From: Candidatus Saccharibacteria bacterium UBA1944 | GTDB lineage: Bacteria > Patescibacteriota > Saccharimonadia > Saccharimonadales > Saccharimonadaceae | Length of the DNA stretch: 64,000 bases | Direction: 5' to 3' | Assembly (NCBI GenBank): GCA_002336935.1 | Contig: DDEW01000002.1 | Span: forward strand, 8,910 to 72,909 | Shown here: piece after piece, positions 2,436-55,388 of the stretch | Layout: each line of letters opens with the position of its first letter | Position numbering within the stretch: the first letter of the stretch is position 1 | Made by a program: the position numbers and the translations under genes | The notes under the pieces: model-generated | Seen by the model: only the letters and a program-made list of their open reading frames with translations | The model's database searches: none | Told to the model about the DNA's origin: nothing

Positions 2436-4064
2436 ATGGCGACACAGGGAAGGGTCCGATCGGCAGTTGCACGCGCCAATAGCAAGTTAAGTGTCCAGTG
2501 GGCCGCTATCTTGTTGGCAAGTTCAACGCTGATTGCTTCTTTGTTGGGTATTTACCGAGATAGGCTCCTCAACAGCTTGTACCTTGATAGCTATCCTGTA
2601 GGGATTGACGCGTATACAGTCGCCTTTACCATTCCTGACTTCATGTTCTTCATATTGGTGTCGGGCGCGCTCAGTGTTACATTTATTCCTGTTTTTAACC
2701 AGCGGCTTGCAGCTGGTAATCGTAAATCTGCTTGGGTGCTGAGTTCGAGCATGGTTAACTTCATGGCGCTAGTGACATTGGTGGCGAGCGTGTTGATTAT
2801 CATTTTTGCTGATCCGCTCGTTCGCTATATTGTTGGACCGGGGCTCGATGAGAGTGGCCGTGCACTGGCAATTAGCATGATGCGTATTATCGCGGTTAAC
2901 CCGTTCTTGTTTGCTGTGGCCACGGTAATCGCAAGCATGCAACAAGCGGTAGGCCGGTTTACGTTCTATGCACTTGCGCCGACAATTTATAACATCGGCA
3001 TCATTATTGGTGCGAAGTTCTTCACTAACGGTATCGATATTTTTGGCTGGCATGTGTTTGATGGGGGAATCATGGGCGTGGCGCTCGGCGTGGTACTGGG
3101 GTCTATGATGCAGCTGGTGGTCAGTTCTATTGGACTACTGGGCCTTGGTTTTGATTATCAAATGAAGATCACGTGGCGTAACAAGGGTTTCCGCCAAGTA
3201 TTACACCTACTGCCAGCTCGCTCGCTTGACCAGGGTATTGATTATTTCAATGGACTCGTCGAAACTAACCTTGCCTCGCACATGGCTGACGGTACCATTC
3301 GTGCTTACCAGCAAGCATCTGCATTGAGCTTGATGCCCGTTAATCTCATTGGTGTGGCCATTAGTAATGCCGCGTTTCCGCGTATGACCGAGCGGTTGAG
3401 CGAGGGCAAGGACGAATTATTCCGTAGCGAGTTGCGCACAGTGCTGCGCTGGATTGTGTGGCTTGCGCTGCCGATTGCTACCATTACCTACTTTACGCGG
3501 GGCTTTGTGGTGGCGTTCATTAAAAACGGCGGAAACGTACTGATTGCTGGTTTGCTTGGTGCATTAGTTGTGGCAATTTTGTTCCGCACGATTTATCACA
3601 TTGCTGCACGAATATTCTATGCCCAACAGGACACAAAAACACCCCTCTATATATCGATTTTTTCCATTGCGCTCAACATTTTCCTCGCCGTGACATTTAC
3701 CAATTCGTTTGGCTGGGGTGTGTATGGGCTGGCATGGGCACAGTCAATTGTCGCCTTTGTTGAGGTTGTCATTTTGTTCGTCATACTGCGCCTTCGCATC
3801 CCGCAATTGTTTACGGCAAGTTTTTGGCACGCGATTTTGCGCATGGTAGCAGCGAGCGCTCTCATGGCATTGGTGACCTATGCTACTGTGCAGCTTTTCC
3901 AGCTGCAAAGTAATGACATGAGTTTCCTGGCGACGTTTCCAAAGTTTGGCATTATCGTCGCAGTGAGCTTTGTGACGTATGTATGGTTGAGTCATATTCT
4001 TCGGCTAAGAGAAGCGACGCCTGTGATTACAAAGGCTCGTTCAATCCTGTTCGGGAGGAAATAG
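2436..4064 (+). CDS. murJ: Lipid II flippase MurJ/MviN
   Basis: Multi-TM protein with DAYTVAFTIPD, GALSVTFIPVF, LMPVNLIGVAISNAAFP and FYAQQDTKTP motifs. Confidence 0.9.
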   Translation: MATQGRVRSAVARANSKLSVQWAAILLASSTLIASLLGIYRDRLLNSLYLDSYPVGIDAYTVAFTIPDFMFFILVSGALSVTFIPVFNQRLAAGNRKSAWVLSSSMVNFMALVTLVASVLIIIFADPLVRYIVGPGLDESGRALAISMMRIIAVNPFLFAVATVIASMQQAVGRFTFYALAPTIYNIGIIIGAKFFTNGIDIFGWHVFDGGIMGVALGVVLGSMMQLVVSSIGLLGLGFDYQMKITWRNKGFRQVLHLLPARSLDQGIDYFNGLVETNLASHMADGTIRAYQQASALSLMPVNLIGVAISNAAFPRMTERLSEGKDELFRSELRTVLRWIVWLALPIATITYFTRGFVVAFIKNGGNVLIAGLLGALVVAILFRTIYHIAARIFYAQQDTKTPLYISIFSIALNIFLAVTFTNSFGWGVYGLAWAQSIVAFVEVVILFVILRLRIPQLFTASFWHAILRMVAASALMALVTYATVQLFQLQSNDMSFLATFPKFGIIVAVSFVTYVWLSHILRLREATPVITKARSILFGRK

Positions 4065-4066
4065 CC

Positions 4067-5845
4067 GTGAGTCAGTCGAACATCCGTAATTTCTGCATTA
4101 TTGCTCATATCGATCATGGCAAGAGTACGTTGGCTGATCGTATGATGGAAATTACCCATACGGTTGAAAAGCGCGATATGAAGTCGCAGCTACTTGATAG
4201 CATGGACTTGGAGCGTGAAAAGGGCATTACGATTAAGCTGGCACCAGTAAGAATGCACCATAAGGGTGTTGACCTTAACCTCATTGATACGCCTGGCCAT
4301 GTGGATTTTAGTTATGAAGTCAGTCGTAGCCTTGAAGCATGTGAGGGGGCGGTACTCGTTGTTGATGCCAGCCAAGGTATCCAGGCGCAAACACTCGCCA
4401 ATGTGTATCTAGCACTGGCAGCAGACCTAACGATTATTCCCGTGCTTAACAAAATTGATTTACCAGCAGCCGATGTGCCACGAGTGAGTGCAGAAATTAT
4501 TAACCTACTGGGTTGTGCTGAGCAAGATATTTTGAAAATTAGCGCAAAGACTGGCGAAGGTGTGGAGACAGTCCTCGATACAATTGTCGAACGTGTCGTG
4601 CCGCCAATGGGTGACGCCAATAGCCCAACTCGGGCGCTTATTTTTGATAGTTACTACGACGATTATCGCGGTGTGATTTTGTACACGCGAGTGGTTGACG
4701 GTGCAATTAAAAAAGGCGATACCATTGCAATGCTTGCGACTGGCGCGCATGGCTTGGCGCTCGAAGTGGGTGCACTCAGCCCTGCCATGAAGGAAGAGCC
4801 AGATATTGGTACGGGAGAAATCGGCTATATTGTGACAAACCTCAAAACCACGCGCGATGCCAAAGTGGGTGACACGGTAACGGTACGCCGTAGCCATAGT
4901 GATCAAGCGCTGCCAGGGTATCAAAACGTAAAGCCATTTGTGTATGCAGGGTTTTTCCCGGTGAGCAATGAAGATTACCAGGATCTCAAAGATGCAGTTG
5001 AAAAACTGAGCCTCAGTGACTCTGCCCTGCAGTTTGAGCCAGAGAACTCGCCGGTGCTGGGTTTTGGGGTGCGGATTGGCTTTTTGGGGTTGCTGCACAT
5101 GGATATCATTCGCGAACGGCTTGAGCGTGAATACGACTTAGATCTTGTGGTAACTAACCCGAGCACAGATTACCAGGTGTCACTGACAAGTGGCGAGGAA
5201 CTTGATATAAAAAGTGCGAGTGATTTACCAAATGTCGCAACGGTCAAAGAAATACGCGAGCCGTGGATTAAGGGCGAGATTGTGGTGCCGCAGGAATATA
5301 TTGGTGCAGTGATTCAACTCATTGTTGCTAAACGCGGTCGCCAGAGTAACTTGAGCTACATTGACGAGCGTGCGTTGATTAGTTTTGAGGCGCCGCTTGC
5401 AAACTTGTTAACGGATTTTTATGATCAACTCAAAAGCGTCACCAGCGGCTACGGCAGTTTCAACTACGAGCTTTCTGCCTATAGGGCAGAGGACTTGGTG
5501 CGCGTTGATTTTTATGTTGGCGGTGAGATGGTAGATGCGCTGAGTGTCATGTGCCATCGAAGTGAAAGTATGGCGCTGGGCCGTGACGTAACGAAGAAGC
5601 TTAAAGAAGTCGTGCCACGGCAAAGCTTCGAAGTAAGCTTACAGGCTGCAATTGGCGGTAAGTTTATTGCACGCGAAAACATTGGGGCATATCGCAAAGA
5701 CGTTACCGGCTATTTGTACGGCGGGGATGTTAGTCGCAAGAAAAAGTTGCTGGCAAAACAGGCGAAAGGCAAAAAGCGTATGAAGCGTTTTGGCAAAGTG
5801 GACATTCCCAGTGAGGCGTTTACTGTGATGCTCAAGCGTGATTAG
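4067..5845 (+). CDS. lepA: Elongation factor 4 (LepA)
   Basis: NIRNFCIIAHIDHGKSTLADR, LIDTPGHVDF, GFLGLLHM, C-terminal KKKLL.KQ..GKKRMK. Likely start is GTG 4067; the ORF-track extension overlaps murJ. Confidence 0.97.
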   Translation: MSQSNIRNFCIIAHIDHGKSTLADRMMEITHTVEKRDMKSQLLDSMDLEREKGITIKLAPVRMHHKGVDLNLIDTPGHVDFSYEVSRSLEACEGAVLVVDASQGIQAQTLANVYLALAADLTIIPVLNKIDLPAADVPRVSAEIINLLGCAEQDILKISAKTGEGVETVLDTIVERVVPPMGDANSPTRALIFDSYYDDYRGVILYTRVVDGAIKKGDTIAMLATGAHGLALEVGALSPAMKEEPDIGTGEIGYIVTNLKTTRDAKVGDTVTVRRSHSDQALPGYQNVKPFVYAGFFPVSNEDYQDLKDAVEKLSLSDSALQFEPENSPVLGFGVRIGFLGLLHMDIIRERLEREYDLDLVVTNPSTDYQVSLTSGEELDIKSASDLPNVATVKEIREPWIKGEIVVPQEYIGAVIQLIVAKRGRQSNLSYIDERALISFEAPLANLLTDFYDQLKSVTSGYGSFNYELSAYRAEDLVRVDFYVGGEMVDALSVMCHRSESMALGRDVTKKLKEVVPRQSFEVSLQAAIGGKFIARENIGAYRKDVTGYLYGGDVSRKKKLLAKQAKGKKRMKRFGKVDIPSEAFTVMLKRD

Positions 5846-5859
5846 CGTATAATCAATCT

Positions 5860-6597
5860 ATGGAAGTATCACTTACACATAAACAGGAATTTATCGATGC
5901 CCTTACTGGGTATCAACCTTCGGCCGAAGCGGTAGCGACGCTTGCACAAATGCCTCTTGTGATTTTGCTCAGCGTTACTGGTGGTGGACGCAACACGATT
6001 ATCAATGAACTCGTTGCAACGGGTCGCTATCATTTTATTGTGTCGGACACTACGCGCCCACCCAAGGTCCGCAATGGTGAACTTGAGCAGGATGGAGTTG
6101 TATACCACTTTAGGAGTGAGGAAGATGTCCTGCATGATATTCGTGAAGGAACCTACTTAGAAGCTGAACTGATTCACAATCAGCAGGTAAGCGGCACCAG
6201 TGTACGTGAGCTTGTGAAGGCGCATGACAGTGGCAAAATTCCTATTAATGAAGTCGACTTAGGCGGCACCGATGCAATTGCTGCAGTCAAGCCCGATACG
6301 GTGTTTTTGTTCGTTGTTCCACCCTCATTCGATGAATGGATGCGCAGGCTTCGCACCCGTGAGAACATGAGCGAAGACGAGTTGCGTAACCGCTTGCAAA
6401 CCGCGGTGCATATGCTTCGTAGGGTACTCGCCAGTGAGAGGTTCGTGTTTGTTATCAACGACGACTTAGCTGAAGTTGTCAGCACAGTTGACGATTATGT
6501 GCGGGGTGAGCATCACCATACGCACAACGACCAAGCACGCCAAGTGGCGCAAGTACTTCTTGACGATACGCTGCGCCATTATCCGGAACTTAGCTAA
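5860..6597 (+). CDS. gmk: Guanylate kinase-like protein (degenerate P-loop)
   Basis: VSDTTRPP...E.DGVVYHF, YLEAE..H...SGT and FVVPPSF.EWMRRL..R motifs. P-loop reads SVTGGGRNT. TATAAT lies 6 nt upstream of the ATG. Confidence 0.7.
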   Translation: MEVSLTHKQEFIDALTGYQPSAEAVATLAQMPLVILLSVTGGGRNTIINELVATGRYHFIVSDTTRPPKVRNGELEQDGVVYHFRSEEDVLHDIREGTYLEAELIHNQQVSGTSVRELVKAHDSGKIPINEVDLGGTDAIAAVKPDTVFLFVVPPSFDEWMRRLRTRENMSEDELRNRLQTAVHMLRRVLASERFVFVINDDLAEVVSTVDDYVRGEHHHTHNDQARQVAQVLLDDTLRHYPELS

Positions 6598-6842
6598 CGG
6601 CGCTTTGAATGCCGGTTACGGCCCTTGAAAAGAATAATAAGAGCAATAACAATCAGGACAATGCCCACTCCGACGCCAATGATCATATTGGTACCAGTGC
6701 TGGGTAATGCTCCCGAATCTGTAGACGTGCAGGCCTGCTGGGAATTATACGTTCCTGCACCATATGCGCTACAGTCGTAGTCTGCAGTGGCTCCAAACGT
6801 TGTTGAAACGCGCACAATAGGGGAGCTTGCATTTATAACCAT
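6594..6842 (-). CDS. Small LPXTG-type cell-wall sorting protein (82 aa)
   Basis: LPSTG (6693-6707), then a hydrophobic helix and a KGRNRHSKRR tail. Two Cys flank YGAGTY. A -10-like element lies immediately upstream. Confidence 0.6.
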   Translation of the reverse strand: MVINASSPIVRVSTTFGATADYDCSAYGAGTYNSQQACTSTDSGALPSTGTNMIIGVGVGIVLIVIALIILFKGRNRHSKRR

Positions 6843-6875
6843 TGCCAGTATAATAACCTTTAGAACTATAACGTA

Positions 6876-6899
6876 CAGGATACCCCGAAGTAGGACACT
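6876..6899. repeat. IS terminal inverted repeat (transposase 3' side)
   Basis: CAGGATACCCCGAAGTAGGACACT versus the reverse complement of 7927-7950, CAGGTCCCTTTGAAGTAGGACACT: 18/24 identical, inner 13 bp perfect. Confidence 0.85.
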
Positions 6900-7848
6900 A
6901 AGCCTGTATTGTTAAGTACTCTAAGTATACCTCATTTGCTGTTTTGTAGCCCAAGACTTGTCTTGGGCGTTCGTTTAGGTACGTTAGTACCGTAACGATC
7001 GTTTCTTTTGTGACCGTGCTAAGATCTGTCTTCTTCGGGATAAAGTGACGGATCCATTTGTTCGTGTTCTCAACCAGCCCCTTCTCCCAGCTATGGTAGG
7101 GATGGGTGAAATAGAACGGCGCACCCAGTAGTTGTTCGAAATACGTCCAGTACGTAAAGGCAATGTCGTTGTCAGTGAGGATAGTTTTGACGGCAACGCC
7201 GTCAAACATCTTCCGTAGAGCTCGCGAGAGCTCTTGTTTGGTTCGGTTGGGGAGTAGTTCTATGAGGGCTCGTTTGCTGAGTGTATCGACGGCCACGAGC
7301 AGCACAGTCTTGCTCCCATTCGTCCCGTCACGGTTCTTTGTCGGGCTGACGATGAAGTCGAGCTCCCAGTGGCCAATCTCATCACATAGGATACGCTCTT
7401 CAATCCACTTCCGTTCACCGATGAGCCCACGGCGATACATCGCTTTGCGTCGCTTTGGTTTGCCTCGAAAGTACAGCTTGTGCTGTAGTGCATAGATCGT
7501 GACGTAGCGATAGATAGTCCGTTTTGAAACAGGACAGTCACGGCTACCCGCAATCTCGCCCGGAGACCAACTCTTGTCGAGGCTGTCGTCGACATATTGG
7601 CGCAACGCTTTGTCGCGAGCAACTTTGTTACTAGACGTTCTCGCATAGTAGCGCTTCTGGTAAGCCTTGATGCTCGCTTTGCGAGCGACGTATTCGCCAG
7701 AAACCGCCAGGTGCTTCAGTTCATAGCTGATGGTATTGGGGCTGCGCCCCAACTCACCAGCTATGTAACGAATGCTTTTACCGTTCTTATGCCAATGCTC
7801 TATCTTAACTCGATCTTCATAGCTTAAGTGATCGTACTTCTGACCCAT
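6898..7848 (-). CDS. IS30-family DDE transposase
   Basis: N-terminal HTH HLSYEDR..IE......SIR.IA..LGRSPNTISYEL; catalytic region GHWELD, ILTDND..F, HPYHSWEKGLVENTN..IR.F.PK.TDL. Start may be 7848 or 7905. Confidence 0.92.
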   Translation of the reverse strand: MGQKYDHLSYEDRVKIEHWHKNGKSIRYIAGELGRSPNTISYELKHLAVSGEYVARKASIKAYQKRYYARTSSNKVARDKALRQYVDDSLDKSWSPGEIAGSRDCPVSKRTIYRYVTIYALQHKLYFRGKPKRRKAMYRRGLIGERKWIEERILCDEIGHWELDFIVSPTKNRDGTNGSKTVLLVAVDTLSKRALIELLPNRTKQELSRALRKMFDGVAVKTILTDNDIAFTYWTYFEQLLGAPFYFTHPYHSWEKGLVENTNKWIRHFIPKKTDLSTVTKETIVTVLTYLNERPRQVLGYKTANEVYLEYLTIQA

Positions 7849-7926
7849 AGCTACTATTGTAGATTTTGATCTGCTTGTTTTTCTAACTTTTCTATACCGT
7901 TTCATACATCCTCGCCTTTCTTGGCG

Positions 7927-7950
7927 AGTGTCCTACTTCAAAGGGACCTG
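7927..7950. repeat. IS terminal inverted repeat (transposase 5' side)
   Basis: AGTGTCCTACTTCAAAGGGACCTG, partner of 6876-6899. Confidence 0.85.
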
Positions 7951-7979
7951 GAGGTAAAAATCAAGGGAGAGCTACCGCT

Positions 7980-8159
7980 ATGCCGAACATCGGAGTACCA
8001 GAACTAATCGTTATTCTTGTCATTCTCCTCCTTCTTTTTGGAGCCAGGAAATTACCAGAACTTGCACGCAGCATTGGTTCTTCAGCCAAAGAGCTGAAAG
8101 GTGCAATGAAAGACGACGAGCCCGCAAGTGGCAAAAAGAGCGACAAAGACAAAGACTAG
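7980..8159 (+). CDS. tatA: Twin-arginine translocase subunit TatA (59 aa, below the ORF-track cutoff)
   Basis: Manual translation [59 protein letters not shown]: TM helix, FG hinge, KLPEL.RS.G amphipathic helix. SD-like AAGGGAG upstream. Confidence 0.92.
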
Positions 8160-9168
8160 TTTTAAGCATCGTGACGAGTCGGTTCTGCCAACTTTCTTGG
8201 ACCACGTCCACGAGTTGCAGGGCCGACTCTTTGCCATTTTGCTTGCCTTTCTTGTAGTAGGTGGTGCAGCCTATCCATTTTTTGATAAGATAGTAACCCT
8301 GATTGTCGCGCCGCTTGGTAACAGCCAGCAACTTGTGTACCTGACACCCGGTGGCGCCTTTAGCTTCATTATTAAGGTTTGTCTTTATGTAGGGGTCATC
8401 GGTGCATTACCGGTTATTATTTATCATTTATATCGGTTTTTAATGCCCGCAGTGAAAAAAGTACACTTGAGGACCGTATTGGCTTATATGCTTGCATCAT
8501 TTGTATTTGCCATTGCGGGCGTCGCATTTGCCTATGTTGTGAGCCTGCCAGCAGCGCTGCACTTTTTGACGAGCTTTGAGTTGTATCACATCAGCCCCAT
8601 GCTTACTATTGACTCCTATTTTTCTTTCGTTATGACGTATTTGCTAGCGGGGGCACTTCTGTTTCAGCTTCCCATTGTCATGCTTATTATTAACTCTGCA
8701 ACACCGTTGACGCCGAGTAAACTCATGGGTGCTCAAAAAGGAATCATTGTTGGATCATTCGTAGCTGCAGCTATTATTTCTCCTACACCAGACGCGCTCA
8801 ACCAGACACTTCTTGCTTCGCCGATTATCATTATGTATCAGCTGGGTATTGTGATTGTGTGGCTACGAAACCGTCGCTTGCAGCCAGAGAGGCAACGCGA
8901 GGCTGTCCCGCGGCACCAAGAATCAACTCACGACATGGTTTCTAGCCAGGTGGCGTTACTACCGGAGCGATCTGCAGCGGTACTGCTGGATCATAGGGTG
9001 CGTACGCTTGATGGGTTTACAGTACGGCAGCGCCAACATGGTGAGCCAGGGCATCCTAGAATGTCGCTTAGCGTACCTACTCGGCAAACAGCCCAGCCTT
9101 CCCTCGCTTCTGTGTCACATCGTCCGCGGCAGACCATCGATGGTTTTTTTGCCCCCGCTCGCTCGTAA
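8128..9168 (+). CDS. tatC: Twin-arginine translocase subunit TatC with long C-terminal tail
   Basis: [31 protein letters not shown] and [15 protein letters not shown] motifs; six TM segments; directly downstream of tatA. The GTG start overlaps tatA. Confidence 0.88.
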
Positions 9169-9172
9169 ATGC

Positions 9173-9201
9173 TTGTGCTTTTATATAGCTGAGTGTATAA
9201 T
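9173..9201 (+). promoter_or_regulatory. sigma70-type promoter for the 73-aa ORF
   Basis: TTGTGC-17 nt-TATAAT. Confidence 0.55.
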
Positions 9202-9234
9202 TGCTGGCATAAACCATATAAAAATCAAAAAAAT

Positions 9235-9456
9235 ATGAAAACACCACAGCATCTAACAGAGTTAATGAACAAGCGTATGGATCGCCAGGAGTTTTTGAAG
9301 CACCTTGCGGTTGGTACACTATTGGTATTCGGTGGCGGTGCTATTGCTAACGCACTTGGACTATCGCAGCGGTTAGGCATCGATGCGCCGGGTAATGGCG
9401 GCTCTGCACAATATGGTTATGGCGCCAGTGTCTACGGTGGCATAAAACGTTCATAG
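9235..9456 (+). CDS. Small protein (73 aa) consisting of a Tat-like signal/anchor and a Gly/Tyr tail
   Basis: MDRQEFLK followed by the hydrophobic HLAVGTLLVFGGGAIANAL and a C-terminal YGYGASVYGG; has its own promoter. Confidence 0.65.
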   Translation: MKTPQHLTELMNKRMDRQEFLKHLAVGTLLVFGGGAIANALGLSQRLGIDAPGNGGSAQYGYGASVYGGIKRS

Positions 9457-9475
9457 AATCCTACCATCGTAACAA

Positions 9476-9504
9476 TAGACACTACTACCCAAATAGGTTA
9501 TGCT
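9476..9504 (+). promoter_or_regulatory. sigma70-type promoter for the tail-fibre-like gene pair
   Basis: TAGACA-17 nt-TATGCT. Confidence 0.5.
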
Positions 9505-9538
9505 ATAGGTATATAGTTTAGTGGTATAGGGGATAATT

Positions 9539-10653
9539 ATGGCACGATTACCGCAACCGGGTGGTGACGCAGGAAACTGGGGCGAGATACTAAATGAGTA
9601 TTTGTCGCAAGTTCACAATACAGATGGTACCCTTAGCCGTCTATTATTCAGTCATCAAACCTAGCCACCGATGCAGTAAGCACCAATGCTCTTGCAAATA
9701 ACTCTGTGACAACGAGCGTACTTGCAGTAAGTGGGGGTACGGACGGCCAAGTTCTCACAAAAGACAGCCTGCAACCTGGGGGGCTGGCGTGGCAGTCGGT
9801 AAGCGTTACTGGGGGCGTATCGAGCGTTAATACCCGCACCGGTGTGGTGACGCTAACGGCATCAGATGTTGGCTTAGCAAATGTTAATAACACCGCAGAC
9901 ACCGATAAACCGGTGTCCTCCGCCGTTCAAACTGAGCTCAACAAAAAAATTGATACGACGGATAAGGGTGTCGCAAATGGTGTTGCTACCCTTGACTCGT
10001 CGGGCAAGGTGACCTCATCGCAGATGCCCGTGACGAGTCAGGTGAATAGCGATTGGGATGCAACAAGTGGTGTGGCGCAGATACTGAATAAGCCCACGAT
10101 TCCTGCACAGCTCAATGCAGCTGCAGGCGCCAACATGACAATCACTGGCACATATCCAAACCTTACGTTTGTCGCTGCTTCAAGCGCGACAGATCTTTCT
10201 TTCACGTCGACTGCTACGAACGCGACGATTGCTAGTAGTACTGGCGTTGATGCAACGATGACGGGTGCTTCTGCAACCAACGCGGGTGTAATGGTTGCGG
10301 CTGACAAAACAAAGCTAGATGGTGTTGCAGCCGGAGCTACTGCCAATGCGACCGACGCGCAGCTTCGTGATCGCGCTACGCATACTGGTACGCAGGCTAT
10401 CGCAACGGTTACTGGATTGCAAACCGCCCTTGACCTTAAGCTTGACTCCGCAAATGTAGACATTGACACTGGATTAGTTGCAAATAGTGATACCAAAGTT
10501 GCATCACAGAAGGCAACAAAAACATATGTAGATACGCATCTTGCTACAAAAGCCGATGCCACAATGGTAGGTGCTAAAGTTTTATTAATTGATAACGCCG
10601 CAGCACTTCCCGCGGGCACTCCGGCAGGCGTAGTCGTTGTTGTAAAGGTCTAG
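9539..10653 (+). pseudogene. MARLP-type phage-tail-fibre-like surface protein with an apparent 1-bp deletion near 9635
   Basis: ATG 9539 gives MARLPQPGGDAGNWGEILNEYLSQVHNTDGTL and stops at 9664. The -1 frame from 9637 continues PSIIQSSNLATDAVSTNALANNSVTTS into ORF 9706-10653. Tail-fibre-like motifs: SVNTRTGVVTL...DVGL.NVNNT.D.DKPVS, KGVANGVATLD, QVNSDW.A.SGVAQILNKP, DKTKLDG. Confidence 0.7.
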
Positions 10654-10657
10654 CCCT

Positions 10658-13000
10658 ATGGCCCAATTGCTATTTGGACCGGGAAACAGCGTTACGTTCG
10701 GGTCACTCAATGGGAGCGGCCTCGGCTCTTCAAAGAGTTTTGCCAAGACTTCTCTATCGAATATGGCAGTAGGCGACTTGCTCGTGATGTGGTTCGGCTC
10801 GCAAGATAACTCCACTACCAGTGTTATCACACCTCCGGCTGGCTGGACAAGATACGGCGCTCCTGAGGGTTCACCAAGCTATTCCACATCTCGTCGCTCG
10901 GGAATCTTCTATTACCCGCTTCGCACACAAGCTGACGTGGATAACTTTCCAGCCACATCAACCTGGACATTTGACGCCACGGCCGCAAATGCCCGCGGGG
11001 GATTTGTCGTTGCTCGAGCTGTAGGCATCGATCTCAATAATATTGAGGATAGTGCGGCAACGGCATTTAGTGGTGGTTCGAATGCAACCAGCTTGAGCGT
11101 TACGGGCATTACGACCCAGAATACCTACACGCTTCTGGTTGGTGGCGTTTATCAACACAACTCGGTGGGTATCACCGTACCAACCGCAACAAGTTTTATG
11201 ACCGGCTTTGACCAATATAACTCGACGGCAGTGGGGAGTACTGCCTATGCAAACACTGCCGCAATTATGGGGTATAAAGACCTCAGTGCGAGCGGTGCGA
11301 CAGGCAACCAAACGGCAACGTTCAACTCATTATGTACCGCGCTAGGTGGGGAGTTGGTAGCCTTTAAGGCACTCCCGCCCTCATCATATGTTCGTCCTAC
11401 AGTCATTGCAGGCAGCGTGCTCACGGCAACGGCATCAAGCGGCACGACATTTACTATAAATAAACCAACCGGTGCTGAAGATGGTGATCTATTAGTTGTG
11501 GCTATTTCTGCACAGTCTGCGACTTCTACGACGGACTTTACGTCAAGCGGATGGATGCGGGTTAGTGCCGATTACGTACCAACTAGCGCTACGTATCGCA
11601 TTACTGGTTTTTATGCTCTGCCTGTTCCGATTGCAGCTAACCTTACGTCAACGTCATTCACTTTTACTTCAACAGACCCAGCGGGTGGGCGTATTGCGGC
11701 ATCCATCTTTATTGTTCGACACGCCGATCTTACTCACATTACCGCTGGCAAGCCATCTATGGCGGGCACTGCTAGCTCGGCGACCATTACTCAAACCATG
11801 GGGACTCCAATGGCAAATATGTCGCTGCTCCTTAGTGTTTATAATGGCCAGTTCACAGTCGGTAACAGCTATGCTGTGTCTACGTCGCCTTCGGGCATGG
11901 CACTGGTTTCATCTACACATGTCGCAAGTGCAAATAGTACAGAAACGCCCAATGTGGTTTACTGCCAAGATGTTGAAGCAGTGAGCCAAGGAACACGGTC
12001 ATTAACGTGGGCGAGTGTTCCGGCTCAGACCAGCGTAGCATCGGTGTATATTCGCAACCTGAGCCAACCGGACGCGGTCACTGAGCCAACGGGTGCAATA
12101 ATCAAGTACACCTCGGCACCTGATACACTATCTGACGCAGTGGTCCGCTACACTTCCGCCGTCGATACACTGGCAATACCAAAAGAAGTCCGACCCTTTC
12201 CAACAGGGTACGCTTCGGTAACTGACATGCTTTCAAAAACCATGTTTTACTGTGCGCACCGTGGTGGTTCGCGAGAATGGCCAGAAATGAGCCTATATGC
12301 GTATACGCAAGCCGGCTTTTGGGGGGTTGGCGCGCTTGAGGTTTCTTTGGCGCGTACATCTGACGGCGTATGGTTTGGGCTGCACGACGCAGACATTAAT
12401 CGCACCTCCGGGACAACCGGTTTGCCCAATGCATCGGCAATGACATGGGCGCAGGTTCAGTCATATCAAATACTTGGCTCAACTGCTTTTAACAACCCAG
12501 CTCAGGCAAATCAGCCTTACATGCGCTGGGAAGAGATTGTTGCAACGTATTATTCCACCCACGTGCTGTTTGTGGACATTAAATACGCAGGTAGCTATAT
12601 CGCTGAGTTTATGACCATGATTAATGCCCTTCCCGGTAACCCCAAAGAGCGGATTGTTGGTAAATCCTACGGAGTTGGATCATCCTTCTCGGACACCATG
12701 CGTGCTGCAGGGTATAAAACTTGGGGCTATTACTATGAAACAGACTTCACGCCAACTAACAATATGGCAACCTACCAATCTCACTATGACATTTTAGGAA
12801 TGGACTACAACGCATCTCAGGCGACCTGGGATGCTGTACTAGCATTTGGTAAGCCGGTGATGGCTCACATTCTTCCGACAAGCGCCTCGTACACAACGGT
12901 GCAAACAAAGGTCAACGCAACCTCTCCCGGGGCAAATGCTGCCAACTGGAAAGGTTGCATGGTGTCTGGGGTAATGAGTGTGATACCACGAACACCGTAG
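10658..13000 (+). CDS. Ser/Thr-rich repeat-domain protein with C-terminal glycerophosphodiester phosphodiesterase (GDPD)-like domain
   Basis: Two homologous domains beginning GDLLV(M/V)...GW. C-terminal AHRGGS.EWPEMS..AY...ALEVSLARTSDGVWFGLHD..INRT. No obvious signal peptide. Confidence 0.7.
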   Translation: MAQLLFGPGNSVTFGSLNGSGLGSSKSFAKTSLSNMAVGDLLVMWFGSQDNSTTSVITPPAGWTRYGAPEGSPSYSTSRRSGIFYYPLRTQADVDNFPATSTWTFDATAANARGGFVVARAVGIDLNNIEDSAATAFSGGSNATSLSVTGITTQNTYTLLVGGVYQHNSVGITVPTATSFMTGFDQYNSTAVGSTAYANTAAIMGYKDLSASGATGNQTATFNSLCTALGGELVAFKALPPSSYVRPTVIAGSVLTATASSGTTFTINKPTGAEDGDLLVVAISAQSATSTTDFTSSGWMRVSADYVPTSATYRITGFYALPVPIAANLTSTSFTFTSTDPAGGRIAASIFIVRHADLTHITAGKPSMAGTASSATITQTMGTPMANMSLLLSVYNGQFTVGNSYAVSTSPSGMALVSSTHVASANSTETPNVVYCQDVEAVSQGTRSLTWASVPAQTSVASVYIRNLSQPDAVTEPTGAIIKYTSAPDTLSDAVVRYTSAVDTLAIPKEVRPFPTGYASVTDMLSKTMFYCAHRGGSREWPEMSLYAYTQAGFWGVGALEVSLARTSDGVWFGLHDADINRTSGTTGLPNASAMTWAQVQSYQILGSTAFNNPAQANQPYMRWEEIVATYYSTHVLFVDIKYAGSYIAEFMTMINALPGNPKERIVGKSYGVGSSFSDTMRAAGYKTWGYYYETDFTPTNNMATYQSHYDILGMDYNASQATWDAVLAFGKPVMAHILPTSASYTTVQTKVNATSPGANAANWKGCMVSGVMSVIPRTP

Positions 13001-13027
13001 TTGGCACTCATATTGCATGAGTGCCAA
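13001..13027 (+). promoter_or_regulatory. CIRCE operator overlapping the hrcA promoter
   Basis: TTGGCACTC-N9-GAGTGCCAA, with TTGCAT (13013-13018)-17 nt-TATAAT (13036-13041). Confidence 0.9.
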
Positions 13028-13047
13028 CCTTGGCGTATAATGAAGCT

Positions 13048-13764
13048 ATGAATATTACGGATAGGCAACGGGCAATCCTCGGCGCCATAGTGGAACAGCA
13101 TGCAGAGATAGCCGCACCAGTAGGAAGTGTCACGCTTGCAAAGCTTTTTGGTGTTAGTAGCGCCACCATTCGTAGTGAGATGGCGAAACTTGAGGAGATG
13201 GGACTGATTGCTGCGCCGCATACCAGTGCGGGACGGATACCAACCGACAAAGGGTACCGTTCTTATGTAAATGGTATTACTGATGCGCAAATGTCAGAGT
13301 TGCCAAGTGGCGTTGATCGTAGCGCTCGAGCAATTGAAGCACACGTCAATTCCTATAAAGATAAAGGCGATCGAGCAATTCGTAGTGCAGTTGATAGCCT
13401 TGTTGAGCTCACGGGTAACTTAGGGTTTGCAACCATCGGTACGCAGCTGTATATGAACGGTATCGGTAACCTATTTAGCCAGCCTGAGTTTATGGAGGGC
13501 CATCATGTGCAGGCCATAGCTCGTCTTCTCGATAATATAGAACCATGGCTTCGTGAAGCGGCGCCAAACCAGCCGCTCAACGTCTATATCGGTAGTGAGA
13601 ATCCCATAGGTAAAAGTAGCGGCGCAACACTCATTATTAGCAAGTTCCGTTCACCCTTTAGCGATAAAAGCTATATAGGTGTGATTGGTCCAACAAGGCA
13701 GAACTATGCACGAACGATGCAACTGGTGCGCCGCACTGGTGCGATGTTGGAGGATGTGCTATAG
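13048..13764 (+). CDS. hrcA: Heat-inducible transcription repressor HrcA (short form)
   Basis: RQ..IL.AIVE.H...A.PVGS, SSATIRSEM.KLE.MGLI..PHTSAGRIPTDKGYR, IGVIGPTRQNY. ATG 13048 is 6 nt after the -10. Confidence 0.92.
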   Translation: MNITDRQRAILGAIVEQHAEIAAPVGSVTLAKLFGVSSATIRSEMAKLEEMGLIAAPHTSAGRIPTDKGYRSYVNGITDAQMSELPSGVDRSARAIEAHVNSYKDKGDRAIRSAVDSLVELTGNLGFATIGTQLYMNGIGNLFSQPEFMEGHHVQAIARLLDNIEPWLREAAPNQPLNVYIGSENPIGKSSGATLIISKFRSPFSDKSYIGVIGPTRQNYARTMQLVRRTGAMLEDVL

Positions 13765-54291: not shown

Positions 54292-54786
54292 ATGAAAGAA
54301 TTTAGCCTAGAACAAACAAACGCATGGATGGCCAATCTTGAGAAGCGAATGAGCAGTGGTGCTGTGGCGCTTCGAACGGATGACGATAAAGTGGTTGTCG
54401 TAAAAGCAAACTACAAACGCTACTGGTCCTTCCCCGGTGGTGTTGTTGATCATGGCGAGACACCTCGACAGGCTGCGGCAAGGGAAGCCGAAGAAGAGGT
54501 TGGAATTGCCGTAGATGTCAATAGCCTTACCTTCAAACTAGTAGTTGATAGGGTAAGTGAGATTGCCCAGACCTATCAATTTGTTTTTGAGGCCTCGGTT
54601 CGCCAAGAGGATCTGGAAAACCTATGTGCTGACGAAGCTGAAATAGAAGAAATTGCGGTGGTTTCGCGCCAGCAGATTATCGACCGGGACCGTTACTACT
54701 CGCAATCCACAATACGGTGGGCCGAAGGCCACACTGGGTATGAAGAGCAAATTTTTGGTGCCGGTGCAAAAGCAGCAGATATTTAG
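54292..54786 (+). CDS. NUDIX hydrolase
   Basis: Nudix box GGVVDHGETPRQAAAREAEEEVG. Confidence 0.9.
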   Translation: MKEFSLEQTNAWMANLEKRMSSGAVALRTDDDKVVVVKANYKRYWSFPGGVVDHGETPRQAAAREAEEEVGIAVDVNSLTFKLVVDRVSEIAQTYQFVFEASVRQEDLENLCADEAEIEEIAVVSRQQIIDRDRYYSQSTIRWAEGHTGYEEQIFGAGAKAADI

Positions 54787-55388
54787 TTCTTAACCAGCTG
54801 GACCCTACCAAGTGGCTTGGCTGTAATAACAACGCGTCCTGCATCTGAGCCGCCGAGTTCGCAGCTGTAGAGTGTTAGTTTGCTTTCCTCGGAAGGTGCC
54901 TCGATTTCAACTTGCGTTGGTTTTACATCGAATTTTTTGGTGATTTCATAACCATAGCGGATACCGCTATAGTCGACAACAATTTTGTCACCTGCAATCA
55001 GCTTGTCAATGTTATAGAAGGGTGATTTGGCCACGGTTTCGCCTGGGGTAGGGGCGATGGTAAAGCGGTGGGCTGCAATAATAAAGTTCCCACCGGTTGC
55101 TGGGTTGCCACGATCTGGAAAGCGCCACTGTGCGCCACGGTTGAGCGCTGCCTCGCCTTCGCCATACACAATATTCACACCGATTTTGGGAATGACAATG
55201 CGATTATCTGTTGCAGTAGGCGCAGGAAGGTTGTTGACGTTGATTGGCTTCATAGCTACCATTGGTGCGATGGTTGGCGCTGCCACCAGACTCAGTACGT
55301 AGGCGCCGCTACTAAGAAGAACAATAGCCACAAAAGTGAGGCCACCTGAACGGAGTCGGGAAGTGTGTTTCGTCTTTATTTTTAACAT
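54783..55388 (-). CDS. Sortase
   Basis: N-terminal TM, R.VIPKIGV, GNFIIAAH, LTLYSC, downstream R (H/C/R triad). Confidence 0.88.
   Translation of the reverse strand: MLKIKTKHTSRLRSGGLTFVAIVLLSSGAYVLSLVAAPTIAPMVAMKPINVNNLPAPTATDNRIVIPKIGVNIVYGEGEAALNRGAQWRFPDRGNPATGGNFIIAAHRFTIAPTPGETVAKSPFYNIDKLIAGDKIVVDYSGIRYGYEITKKFDVKPTQVEIEAPSEESKLTLYSCELGGSDAGRVVITAKPLGRVQLVKN

Follow-up and report, generated by a model that had tools for sequence, protein, structure and literature searches.

It is an open question how Saccharibacteria and other ultrasmall epibionts recognize their actinobacterial hosts, hold on to them, and open them, and one locus of Candidatus Saccharibacteria bacterium UBA1944 poses it in concrete form. 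Why would genes for a phage-type tail fiber and a phage-type phosphodiesterase, neither with a signal peptide, share a block with tatA and tatC, which encode a twin-arginine translocation (Tat) system, and with genes for two very small proteins? We analyzed a window of 64,000 nucleotides that contains this block (positions 8910 to 72909 of contig C12, DDEW01000002.1) in the genome under study, G000, which is 0.95 Mb in size and 97.7% complete and whose nearest named relatives are Candidatus Saccharimonas and Saccharibacteria metagenome-assembled genomes. The explanation that we prefer, and hold to be a little likelier than an even chance, is that the block is a Tat-linked module for the display of phage-type fibers, of which G000 carries a damaged copy.

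The module appears to be a conserved and horizontally mobile gene set of Saccharibacteria whose range extends to certain other Patescibacteria and to Mycolicibacterium agri, and it would have five components. Beside tatA-tatC, these are a peptide of ∼70 residues that seems to be little beyond a Tat-type signal or anchor and a free C-terminal GYGxSxYGG; a divergently encoded micro-protein of ∼80 residues with a presumably free N-terminal YGxGxY and a C-terminal LPxTG sortase signal; at least one signal-less protein that appears to be built of phage tail fiber or tailspike parts behind a common 33-residue head, here called the MARLP head; and, often directly after the fiber gene, a signal-less enzyme, in G000 a predicted phage-type GDPD phosphodiesterase. 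We are highly confident that these genes act in one process.

The case for a shared process begins with inheritance. We searched an even sample of 301 Saccharimonadia genomes from 160 genera (the class sample) and 286 genomes spread over Patescibacteria (the phylum sample). In the class sample, 90 genomes have TatC, 87 the MARLP head, and 86 the peptide. TatC and MARLP coincided in 86 genomes, with 4 carrying TatC only, 1 carrying MARLP only, and 210 carrying neither (Fisher p 3e-69); for TatC and the peptide the corresponding numbers were 86, 4, 0, and 211, every peptide-bearing genome (86/86) being TatC positive. In the phylum sample, TatC was present in 15/286 genomes and MARLP in 11/286, all 11 inside the TatC set. 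A MARLP head was detected in 1 of 211 TatC-negative genomes of the class sample and in 0 of 271 of the phylum sample. Among 41 relatives of G000, TatC and the peptide occupied the same 12 genomes and MARLP 11 of these 12; the lone MARLP-positive, TatC-negative relative, G017, holds a 62-amino-acid relic open reading frame (ORF), described below. At least six genera are in mixed states (g1, g18, g20, g22, g28, and g29), and the three families are concordant in every genome listed for them. We conclude that the association of TatC, peptide, and MARLP is real and strong and that the module genes are gained and lost as one unit among related bacteria. The original prediction, made from the window alone, had expected the families to co-occur and MARLP proteins not to be common in genomes that lack tatC, and it is borne out on both counts.

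The gene neighborhoods also agree with that prediction. A peptide gene followed by a MARLP gene is a recurrent adjacent pair, at tat loci and elsewhere, and the two are tightly coupled, with stop and start codons that overlap or abut. The gene for the LPxTG/YG micro-protein is a conserved divergent neighbor of tatA/tatC or of the peptide gene in ∼30 sampled genomes of many families, as well as at loci L111, L139, L141, and L175. The complete order lepA-gmk-LPSTG(−)-tatA-tatC-peptide-fiber-GDPD-hrcA was found again in independent metagenome contigs and in CAZHVV010000003.1 and is no chance juxtaposition. MARLP genes number 1 to 12 per genome and are often dispersed far from tatC, and among the 98 MARLP genes of the best 80 loci, 8 have the peptide gene directly upstream. 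Physical linkage alone therefore cannot explain the pattern.

The core of the module recurs in a second phylum. In M. agri (BLKS01000001.1; L185, 9705 to 10792), a three-gene cassette for micro-protein, peptide, and MARLP protein lies between DDE and rve transposase genes and has a G+C content of 58 to 60%, compared with ∼64% in its flanks. No tatAC genes stand beside the cassette; housekeeping Tat genes are present in mycobacteria. The cassette indicates that the three-gene core is conserved across phyla and mobile. Mobility of the module likewise fits the low identity of TatC between same-genus Saccharibacteria, 38 to 52% versus 80 to 89% for HrcA. The M. agri MARLP gene, at 191 amino acids, may be truncated.

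These data bear on a reading in which no mechanism is shared, the fiber and GDPD genes being phage cargo or a prophage remnant beside Tat genes and the co-occurrence arising from ancestry, ecology, or co-transfer. Such an origin would suit the phage-family matches of both large proteins, the mobility suggested by the divergent TatC sequences, the presence of an IS30 element, and the position of the block: throughout the order, ∼50 bp separate gmk from hrcA in most relatives, an adjacency that is ancestral, and the block is therefore an island at the gmk-hrcA site. Against it, the flanks are lepA, gmk, hrcA, grpE, and dnaK, with no capsid, terminase, or tape-measure genes at the locus; the dispersed MARLP copies are still limited to TatC-positive genomes in many genera; and the cassette is conserved in M. 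agri. We regard this reading as very unlikely and as largely refuted by the co-occurrence data. Taking the block as a simple insertion unique to G000 also needed refinement, since the same block is present in sister strains and at L139 and a relic occupies the same site in G017.

The proteins that would be displayed are defined by their first 33 residues, M-[AP]-R-L-P-x-P-G-x-D-x-G-x-W-G-x-I-L-N-x-[FY]-L-x-x-x-H-N-x-D-G-x-L-K, a head with 76% mean column identity across orders that sits at residue 1. A full HMMER pass through 1.84 billion representatives (50% identity) returned 3,776 cluster representatives with this head, and in almost every one of the best 150 of these 3,776 matches it begins at residue 1. 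The bodies behind it are varied and phage-like and include tail repeats, BppL_N, an endosialidase N-extension, collagen-like and beta-helix regions, and GDSL/SGNH, esterase, and tailspike domains. A sequence search of the PDB with the head matched no solved structure. Among viruses, BRock-group Streptomyces phages have the head, as do 37 IMG/VR contigs; in the latter, MARLP genes come after tape-measure or tail genes, and the body is often of the tailspike type. The MARLP head is a phage tail fiber module. A search of 39 viral or phage loci (the 37 IMG/VR contigs and two Streptomyces phage loci) turned up neither the peptide nor TatA or TatC, and no peptide-like genes stand beside the Streptomyces phage MARLP genes. 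In the Streptomyces phages BRock and GiJojo (L102 and L103; 112 to 115 kb), the MARLP-headed genes lie within a tRNA gene array, outside the tail module, and the annotated start of the BRock gene overlaps a tRNA-Lys gene. In G036 and G027 (L039 5590-8316; L040 11561-13654), large signal-less beta-helix-like proteins are encoded between the peptide and MARLP genes and share a different N-terminus (..W..GG.W....P[TS]AADDV/NV..).

The N-termini of the two large window proteins (MARLPQPGGDAGNWGEILNEYL... and MAQLLFGPGNSVTFG...) contain no hydrophobic stretch, and this agrees with the earlier statement that neither has a Sec or Tat signal. Both the fiber and the GDPD protein share this property, a passenger without a signal peptide of its own, with Tat hitch-hikers. 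Missing signal peptides could also mean that the fiber-like proteins act inside the cell or that the module serves phage defense or as a decoy instead of surface display. We think this scarcely likely at all: tailspike, SGNH, esterase, and GDPD domains are typical of extracellular glycan- or wall-active proteins, and the partner mini-proteins look like a membrane anchor and a sortase substrate. The module probably mounts signal-less fibers on the cell surface.

The peptide suggests how they might get there. In the window it consists of MDRQEFLK, a hydrophobic region, a short linker, and a C-terminal YGYGASVYGG; 14 aligned homologs share, after an N-terminus that varies, L-x-K-E-M-[SD]-R-x-[ED]-F-L and then a hydrophobic stretch of ∼20 residues that includes Gly, from which a variable linker leads to GYGxSxYGG near the C-terminus. 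In 120 database members the invariant Arg is followed by K (73%), T (11%), R (7%), A (5%), or Q (2.5%), which places the R-Q of the window peptide within the family range, and we rejected the idea that it is a lesion of a twin-arginine (RR) signal. The YG motif is present in 120/120 members, at a median distance of 5 residues from the C-terminus (interquartile range, 1 to 7; maximum, 27). In G332, G234, G024, and G094, large secreted enzymes of conventional appearance begin with the same N-terminal signal, which by its sequence can be read as the Tat-type signal of this lineage. We considered these large proteins as fused equivalents of MARLP fibers and rejected this, as their bodies are not homologous to MARLP bodies. 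A profile of the lineage Tat signal, run against G000, matched the peptide alone (E 2e-15; next best, 0.08), and TatAC has one recognizable client in G000. A TATFIND-like regular expression for S/T-R-R-x-F-L-K found no signal in the whole genome, in line with the earlier claim that the window lacks a canonical RR signal. No A-x-A cleavage site is conserved after the signal in the family alignment, which leaves the "detachable" carrier of the original prediction unsupported.

Homologs of the peptide have escaped naming: a single-sequence word search found 2 proteins and a profile search 150, the latter named only "hypothetical protein." The NCBIfam family NF038009 ("twin-arginine translocation system-associated protein") resembles the window peptide in its ∼70-residue length and its layout, and its name records association with the Tat system only and no function. 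The window peptide scored 56.7 bits against the 100-bit cutoff of NF038009 (E 2e-15), no peptide in the 41 genomes exceeded that cutoff (Saccharibacterial scores were 21 to 74 bits), and matches tracked TatC in 12/12 relatives. The peptide is a relative, not a member, of NF038009.

What the peptide may hold is indicated by its free end. At viral loci, the gene directly upstream of the MARLP gene ends ...YGSGTYGSGTYGG or similar in 8 loci, and the gene directly downstream begins ...YGSSLYG... in 7 loci; one YG-bearing upstream protein is a phrog_376 tail protein. YGxGxYG stands at the abutting terminus in 15/57 adjacent viral genes compared with 5/436 other viral genes (odds ratio 31, p 1.5e-11). 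The same motif lies at a free terminus in all three settings: in the viral neighbors, at the C-terminus of the peptide, and near the N-terminus of the micro-protein, which in the window carries YGAGTY. Since viral MARLP neighbors carry the YGxGxYG of the micro-proteins, the motif is probably the docking partner of the head. We consider it fairly likely that the MARLP head is a phage-derived docking domain with the terminal YG motif as its ligand, as between neighboring phage tail proteins. The simplest reading would be that cells grafted a phage tail assembly ligand onto two kinds of envelope anchor.

The second of these anchors is the micro-protein, whose family has a TY[DN]C..YG[SA]G[ST][YF]N...C head, a Thr-rich linker, L[PA]xTG, a transmembrane helix, and a basic tail. 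Two profiles recognize its LPXTG sorting signal in the window (Table 1), and the window sortase is a candidate enzyme for it. The window micro-protein has no N-terminal hydrophobic signal, and a Sec signal is absent from it and from six aligned homologs (L111, L139, L141, L175, G036, and M. agri); unlike these, a 162-amino-acid relative in G031 has a Sec-type signal.

The window TatC ends in a polar C-terminal extension of ∼100 amino acids (8900 to 9168) that closes on a conserved [LI]DG[FM] (RTLDGF, TIDGFF). The tail motifs are kept in L111, L139, L141, and L175, and the tail could make contact with cargo. In one rival reading, the MARLP head would itself be an unconventional targeting tag that TatC reads, perhaps via the DGF tail, and the peptide would be a separate small Tat substrate or an accessory or regulatory subunit of the translocase. 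The long TatC tails with their conserved motif are compatible with this reading, as are the high conservation of the head across orders and the NCBIfam name of the related peptide family, which says only "Tat system-associated." However, the head has no hydrophobic region and a single invariant Arg, it works in phage tails without any Tat context, the YG motif of its phage neighbors is exactly that of the peptide, and the M. agri cassette has no dedicated tatC. We judge direct recognition of the head by TatC to be improbable.

Our preferred mechanism instead gives the peptide the role of carrier. It would bind folded fibers in the cytoplasm before passage through TatAC, take them across as hitch-hikers, and stay with them as an anchor, and the sortase-attached micro-protein would provide a second docking site, at the wall. 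Tat is, to our knowledge, the only known route for pre-folded complexes, and Tat hitch-hiking export is plausible; the mechanism as a whole we rate as a serious possibility that falls somewhat short of an even chance. A wider reading is that of a new secretion-display route, in which a micro-carrier made up of no more than a Tat signal or anchor and a YG docking motif derived from phage baseplates would ferry, in trans, pre-folded and interchangeable fibers and depolymerases across TatAC, a YG micro-protein linked by sortase would keep them at the wall, and the kit is shared with Actinobacteria, having passed by horizontal transfer among Saccharibacteria, other Patescibacteria, and host Actinobacteria. 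We put this forward tentatively and with more doubt than belief. Once displayed, the fibers and enzymes may plausibly attach to glycopolymers in the envelope of the actinobacterial host or cleave them.

Several observations weigh against the carrier mechanism and its docking pair. Trimeric fibers of 400 to 1400 amino acids per chain would be very large Tat cargo. The second residue of the signal makes it R-K in 73% of peptides and R-R in 7%, and we therefore infer its Tat targeting from context. Most MARLP genes adjoin neither peptide nor tatC, the peptide lying upstream in only the 8 of 98 cases given above. Four TatC-positive genomes lack MARLP and four lack the peptide, three of the latter four being only 62 to 86% complete. 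The 15/32 viral loci with a YG motif in a flanking gene overstate the independent cases, which are nearer nine, because the viral contigs are partly related to one another. An AlphaFold2 model of the in-frame read-through of peptide, intergenic region, and MARLP gene at L111 (85 sequences; mean predicted local distance difference test score [pLDDT], 62.6) left the YG motif disordered (pLDDT ∼44), although this is a monomer model of a probably trimeric head and hence weak. The docking role first assigned to the YGAxxY peptides thus draws support from the viral MARLP neighbors, which carry the motif, and none from the pseudo-fusion.

Some of these points suit the strongest rival, in which the two mini-proteins are anchors only. 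Tat would then insert the peptide as an anchor in the membrane, the micro-protein would serve as one in the wall, both would expose YG on the outside, and the fibers would leave the cell otherwise, by lysis of some cells, in vesicles, or through an unrecognized exporter, and dock from outside. This arrangement explains the same three-way co-occurrence, since MARLP would depend on the peptide and the peptide in turn on Tat, and it fits the absence of intramolecular docking in the AlphaFold2 model, the large size of many fibers, and the location of most MARLP genes away from the peptide gene. On the other side, no other export route is evident for the signal-less proteins, and the overlapping or abutting stop and start codons of peptide and MARLP genes suggest synthesis and assembly together in the cytoplasm. 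We hold it to be unlikely that the mini-proteins are anchors alone and continue to favor a carrier peptide.

The enzyme encoded after the fiber gene, the GDPD protein, also looks phage derived, although it carries neither a MARLP head nor a signal. Its residues ∼257 to 777 match "phosphoesterase" genes of Microbacterium phages (27 to 32% identity; phrog_17803, E 6e-63), which lie within the virion-structural block, between major tail protein and head-to-tail adaptor genes, and its N-terminal half contains two weakly similar domains (internal repeat E 2e-4). The GDPD core starts AHRGG and aligns with GDPD and lysoplasmalogenase structures; the protein belongs to PF03009 both by its score (Table 1) and by the HR(G) catalytic start. 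By these similarities, the 780-amino-acid protein is predicted to be a GDPD phosphodiesterase of the phage type. GDPD homologs directly follow MARLP genes at L139, where the gene order agrees as far as hrcA, and at L177, and in G020 a GH5 enzyme takes the place of the GDPD gene. The original description of the GDPD protein as a MARLP-type passenger has to be given up in favor of a phage-type phosphoesterase encoded after the fiber gene; such GDPD and GH5 enzymes would ride with the fiber or act beside it.

In G000 itself, the module is a damaged copy. An IS30 element of 1083 bp (6872 to 7954) has inserted between the LPSTG gene and tatA, in an intergenic region that is otherwise 52 bp long; it lies 25 bp ahead of the start codon of tatA and probably severs the tat operon from its promoter. 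It was recognized by its transposase (Table 1), by perfect terminal inverted repeats of 13 bp (6887 to 6899 and 7927 to 7939), and by a 3-bp target duplication. Window positions 6872 to 7954 are extra relative to L187, with a 3-bp overlap at the joint of the empty site, which fits an IS30 insertion with target duplication. The element is single copy in G000. The fiber gene, the only MARLP gene in G000 (one profile match), is broken by a one-base indel near 9634-9637 into a 41-amino-acid head ORF (9539 to 9664) and a 338-amino-acid body frame (open from 9637). This indel is the sole gap in the 2.5-kb alignment that runs from tatA into the fiber gene, and it is possibly an assembly error instead of a true frameshift. 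Three metagenome contigs, L187 to L189, are 95 to 98% identical to the window over aligned blocks, and a fourth, L190, is 88 to 92% identical; all four have the full gene order without IS30, with intact fiber orthologs of 493 (L187) and 371 (L190) amino acids. Insertion and frameshift are strain specific, and intact copies exist in close relatives. The original inventory of the block, from the LPSTG gene and tatA-tatC through the 73-amino-acid peptide, the tail-fiber-like gene, and the GDPD gene between gmk and hrcA, holds in every gene and position; it had missed the 1083-bp IS30 element and did not mention the frameshift.

A further step of decay is visible in G017 (L045; G017:C7), where a 62-amino-acid relic ORF with a MARLP head (3335 to 3523) lies on the opposite strand in a 419-bp gmk-hrcA gap. 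It is the scar of a lost module in a Tat-less genome of the same genus. The damaged G000 copy, the intact sister copies, and the G017 relic document ongoing loss of the module within one genus.

The sister copies also differ from one another. The fiber of L187 and those of L190 and the window differ in a 122-residue block near the tip (window 10457-10570; L187:6085-6564), with flanks that are 95 to 97% identical, and this looks like exchange of a distal module. Such a difference is the pattern that would be expected for an exchangeable binding tip.

The features of the block and of the M. agri cassette are collected in Table 1. At the left junction, the window gmk is 72% identical to that of G014 and 31 to 37% identical to most same-genus gmk genes, compared with 80 to 89% for hrcA; there appear to be two gmk types, or a gmk replacement, at this junction (window; G014, G020, and other same-genus genomes). 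In G020 (L031; G020:C5 11236-19281), lepA is in two pieces ∼6 kb apart with inserted genes between them, and the tat-peptide-MARLP-GH5 block comes after the distal lepA piece. A scan for promoters and terminators gave results at chance level.

Table 1. Features of the tat-fiber block, its flanks, and the window sortase (window coordinates), and of the M. agri cassette
Feature	Coordinates	Strand	Evidence or remarks
lepA-gmk	3983-6597		Left flank of block
gmk (guanylate kinase)	5860-6597	+	PF00625, E 1e-22; left housekeeping flank
LPSTG/YG micro-protein, 82 aa	6594-6842	−	TIGR01167, 25.2 bits (cutoff 15.9); PF00746, 20.3 (cutoff 20)
IS30-family insertion sequence	6872-7954	−	Transposase 6898-7905; NF033563, 163.6 bits (cutoff 80)
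tatA	7980-8159	+	PF02416, E 3e-16; TIGR01411, 65.4 bits (cutoff 53.9)
tatC	8128-9168	+	PF00902, E 1.5e-49; TIGR00945, 148.7 bits (cutoff 132.7)
Tat-signal-like peptide, 73 aa	9235-9456	+	ORF open from 9193; NF038009, E 2e-15, below cutoff
Tail-fiber-like gene with 33-aa MARLP head	9539-10653	+	PHROG minor-tail and tail-fiber matches
GDPD protein, 780 aa	10658-13000	+	PF03009, 37.3 bits (cutoff 23.6); start 4 bp past fiber stop
hrcA	13021-13764	+	TIGR00331, E 2e-48; right housekeeping flank, then grpE-dnaK
Sortase	54783-55388	−	PF04203, E 9e-17; unlinked, ∼48 kb from LPSTG gene
M. agri micro-protein, 70 aa		−	MATYNC..YGAGSYG..APNTG, transmembrane helix, RRRKKS
M. agri peptide, 71 aa			..MDRRDFL..GYGGSAYGG..
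M. agri MARLP protein			Start codon abuts peptide stop codon

The module ties an unannotated family of phage-type fibers and enzymes, with its 3,776 cluster representatives, to a defined exporter and two mini-proteins, and its parts list is short: a 33-residue head, a 10-residue motif, and TatAC. It appears that cells have here reused a phage tail assembly interface and that genes have moved between the phyla of epibionts and their hosts. Should the docking pair function as proposed, Tat would have a novel means of transporting signal-less oligomers, and biotechnology a compact display tag.

Our literature searches found no published description of the module. A Tat system has been noted in a single Saccharibacterium (PMC6031116), and in a 2026 preprint a "tail fibre-like protein" is placed close to a candidate phyla radiation (CPR) pilus operon (PMC13278184). 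Among the closest known systems are Tat hitch-hikers such as the Streptomyces MelC1/MelC2 tyrosinase (PMC2758597) and E. coli PaoABC and HybO/HybC (PMC4273604), in which, as here, a signal-less protein is encoded beside a small partner with a Tat-type signal. In those systems the carrier is a folded subunit or a chaperone, its RR signal is cleavable, and it serves a single fixed passenger. In contrast, the putative carrier of the module is a signal plus a 10-residue motif, mostly R-K and with no conserved AxA, it would serve a polymorphic family of 1 to 12 putative passengers, and the system is known here from sequence only. WceF of Pantoea stewartii, a tailspike-like trimer with a Tat signal (PMC7949094), sets a precedent for routing beta-helix proteins of the phage type to Tat; that signal, however, is in cis and cleavable, and WceF has neither a separate carrier nor a sortase partner and does not belong to a multigene family.

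A parallel in form is provided by the MAT (mosaic adhesive trimer) fibers of Bdellovibrio bacteriovorus, which lives on other bacteria. Like MARLP proteins, these are a chromosomal multigene family of phage-fiber-like proteins with an invariant N-domain and swappable tips, and their N-domain presumably attaches to some surface element yet to be identified (PMC10769870). MAT fibers have ordinary signal peptides and a beta-rich N-domain of ∼130 amino acids (PMC10769870), whereas MARLP proteins have no signal, a 33-amino-acid head, and a genomic tie to Tat and two YG mini-proteins, and they fall outside the MAT family. Compared with other LPXTG sortase substrates, the window micro-protein is typical in its complete LPSTG, transmembrane helix, and basic tail and in the presence of a sortase in the window, and it differs in having only ∼45 residues ahead of the motif and no N-terminal signal peptide. 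Phage tail fibers carry N-terminal adaptor domains that dock on baseplate or tail proteins, forming branched receptor-binding complexes. As in such attachment modules, the MARLP head stands at the N-terminus of fibers and spikes and the YG motif at the abutting terminus of a neighbor; in the module, unlike in the phage, no virion genes are present and the motif is borne by a Tat-signal peptide and a sortase substrate rather than by a baseplate protein.

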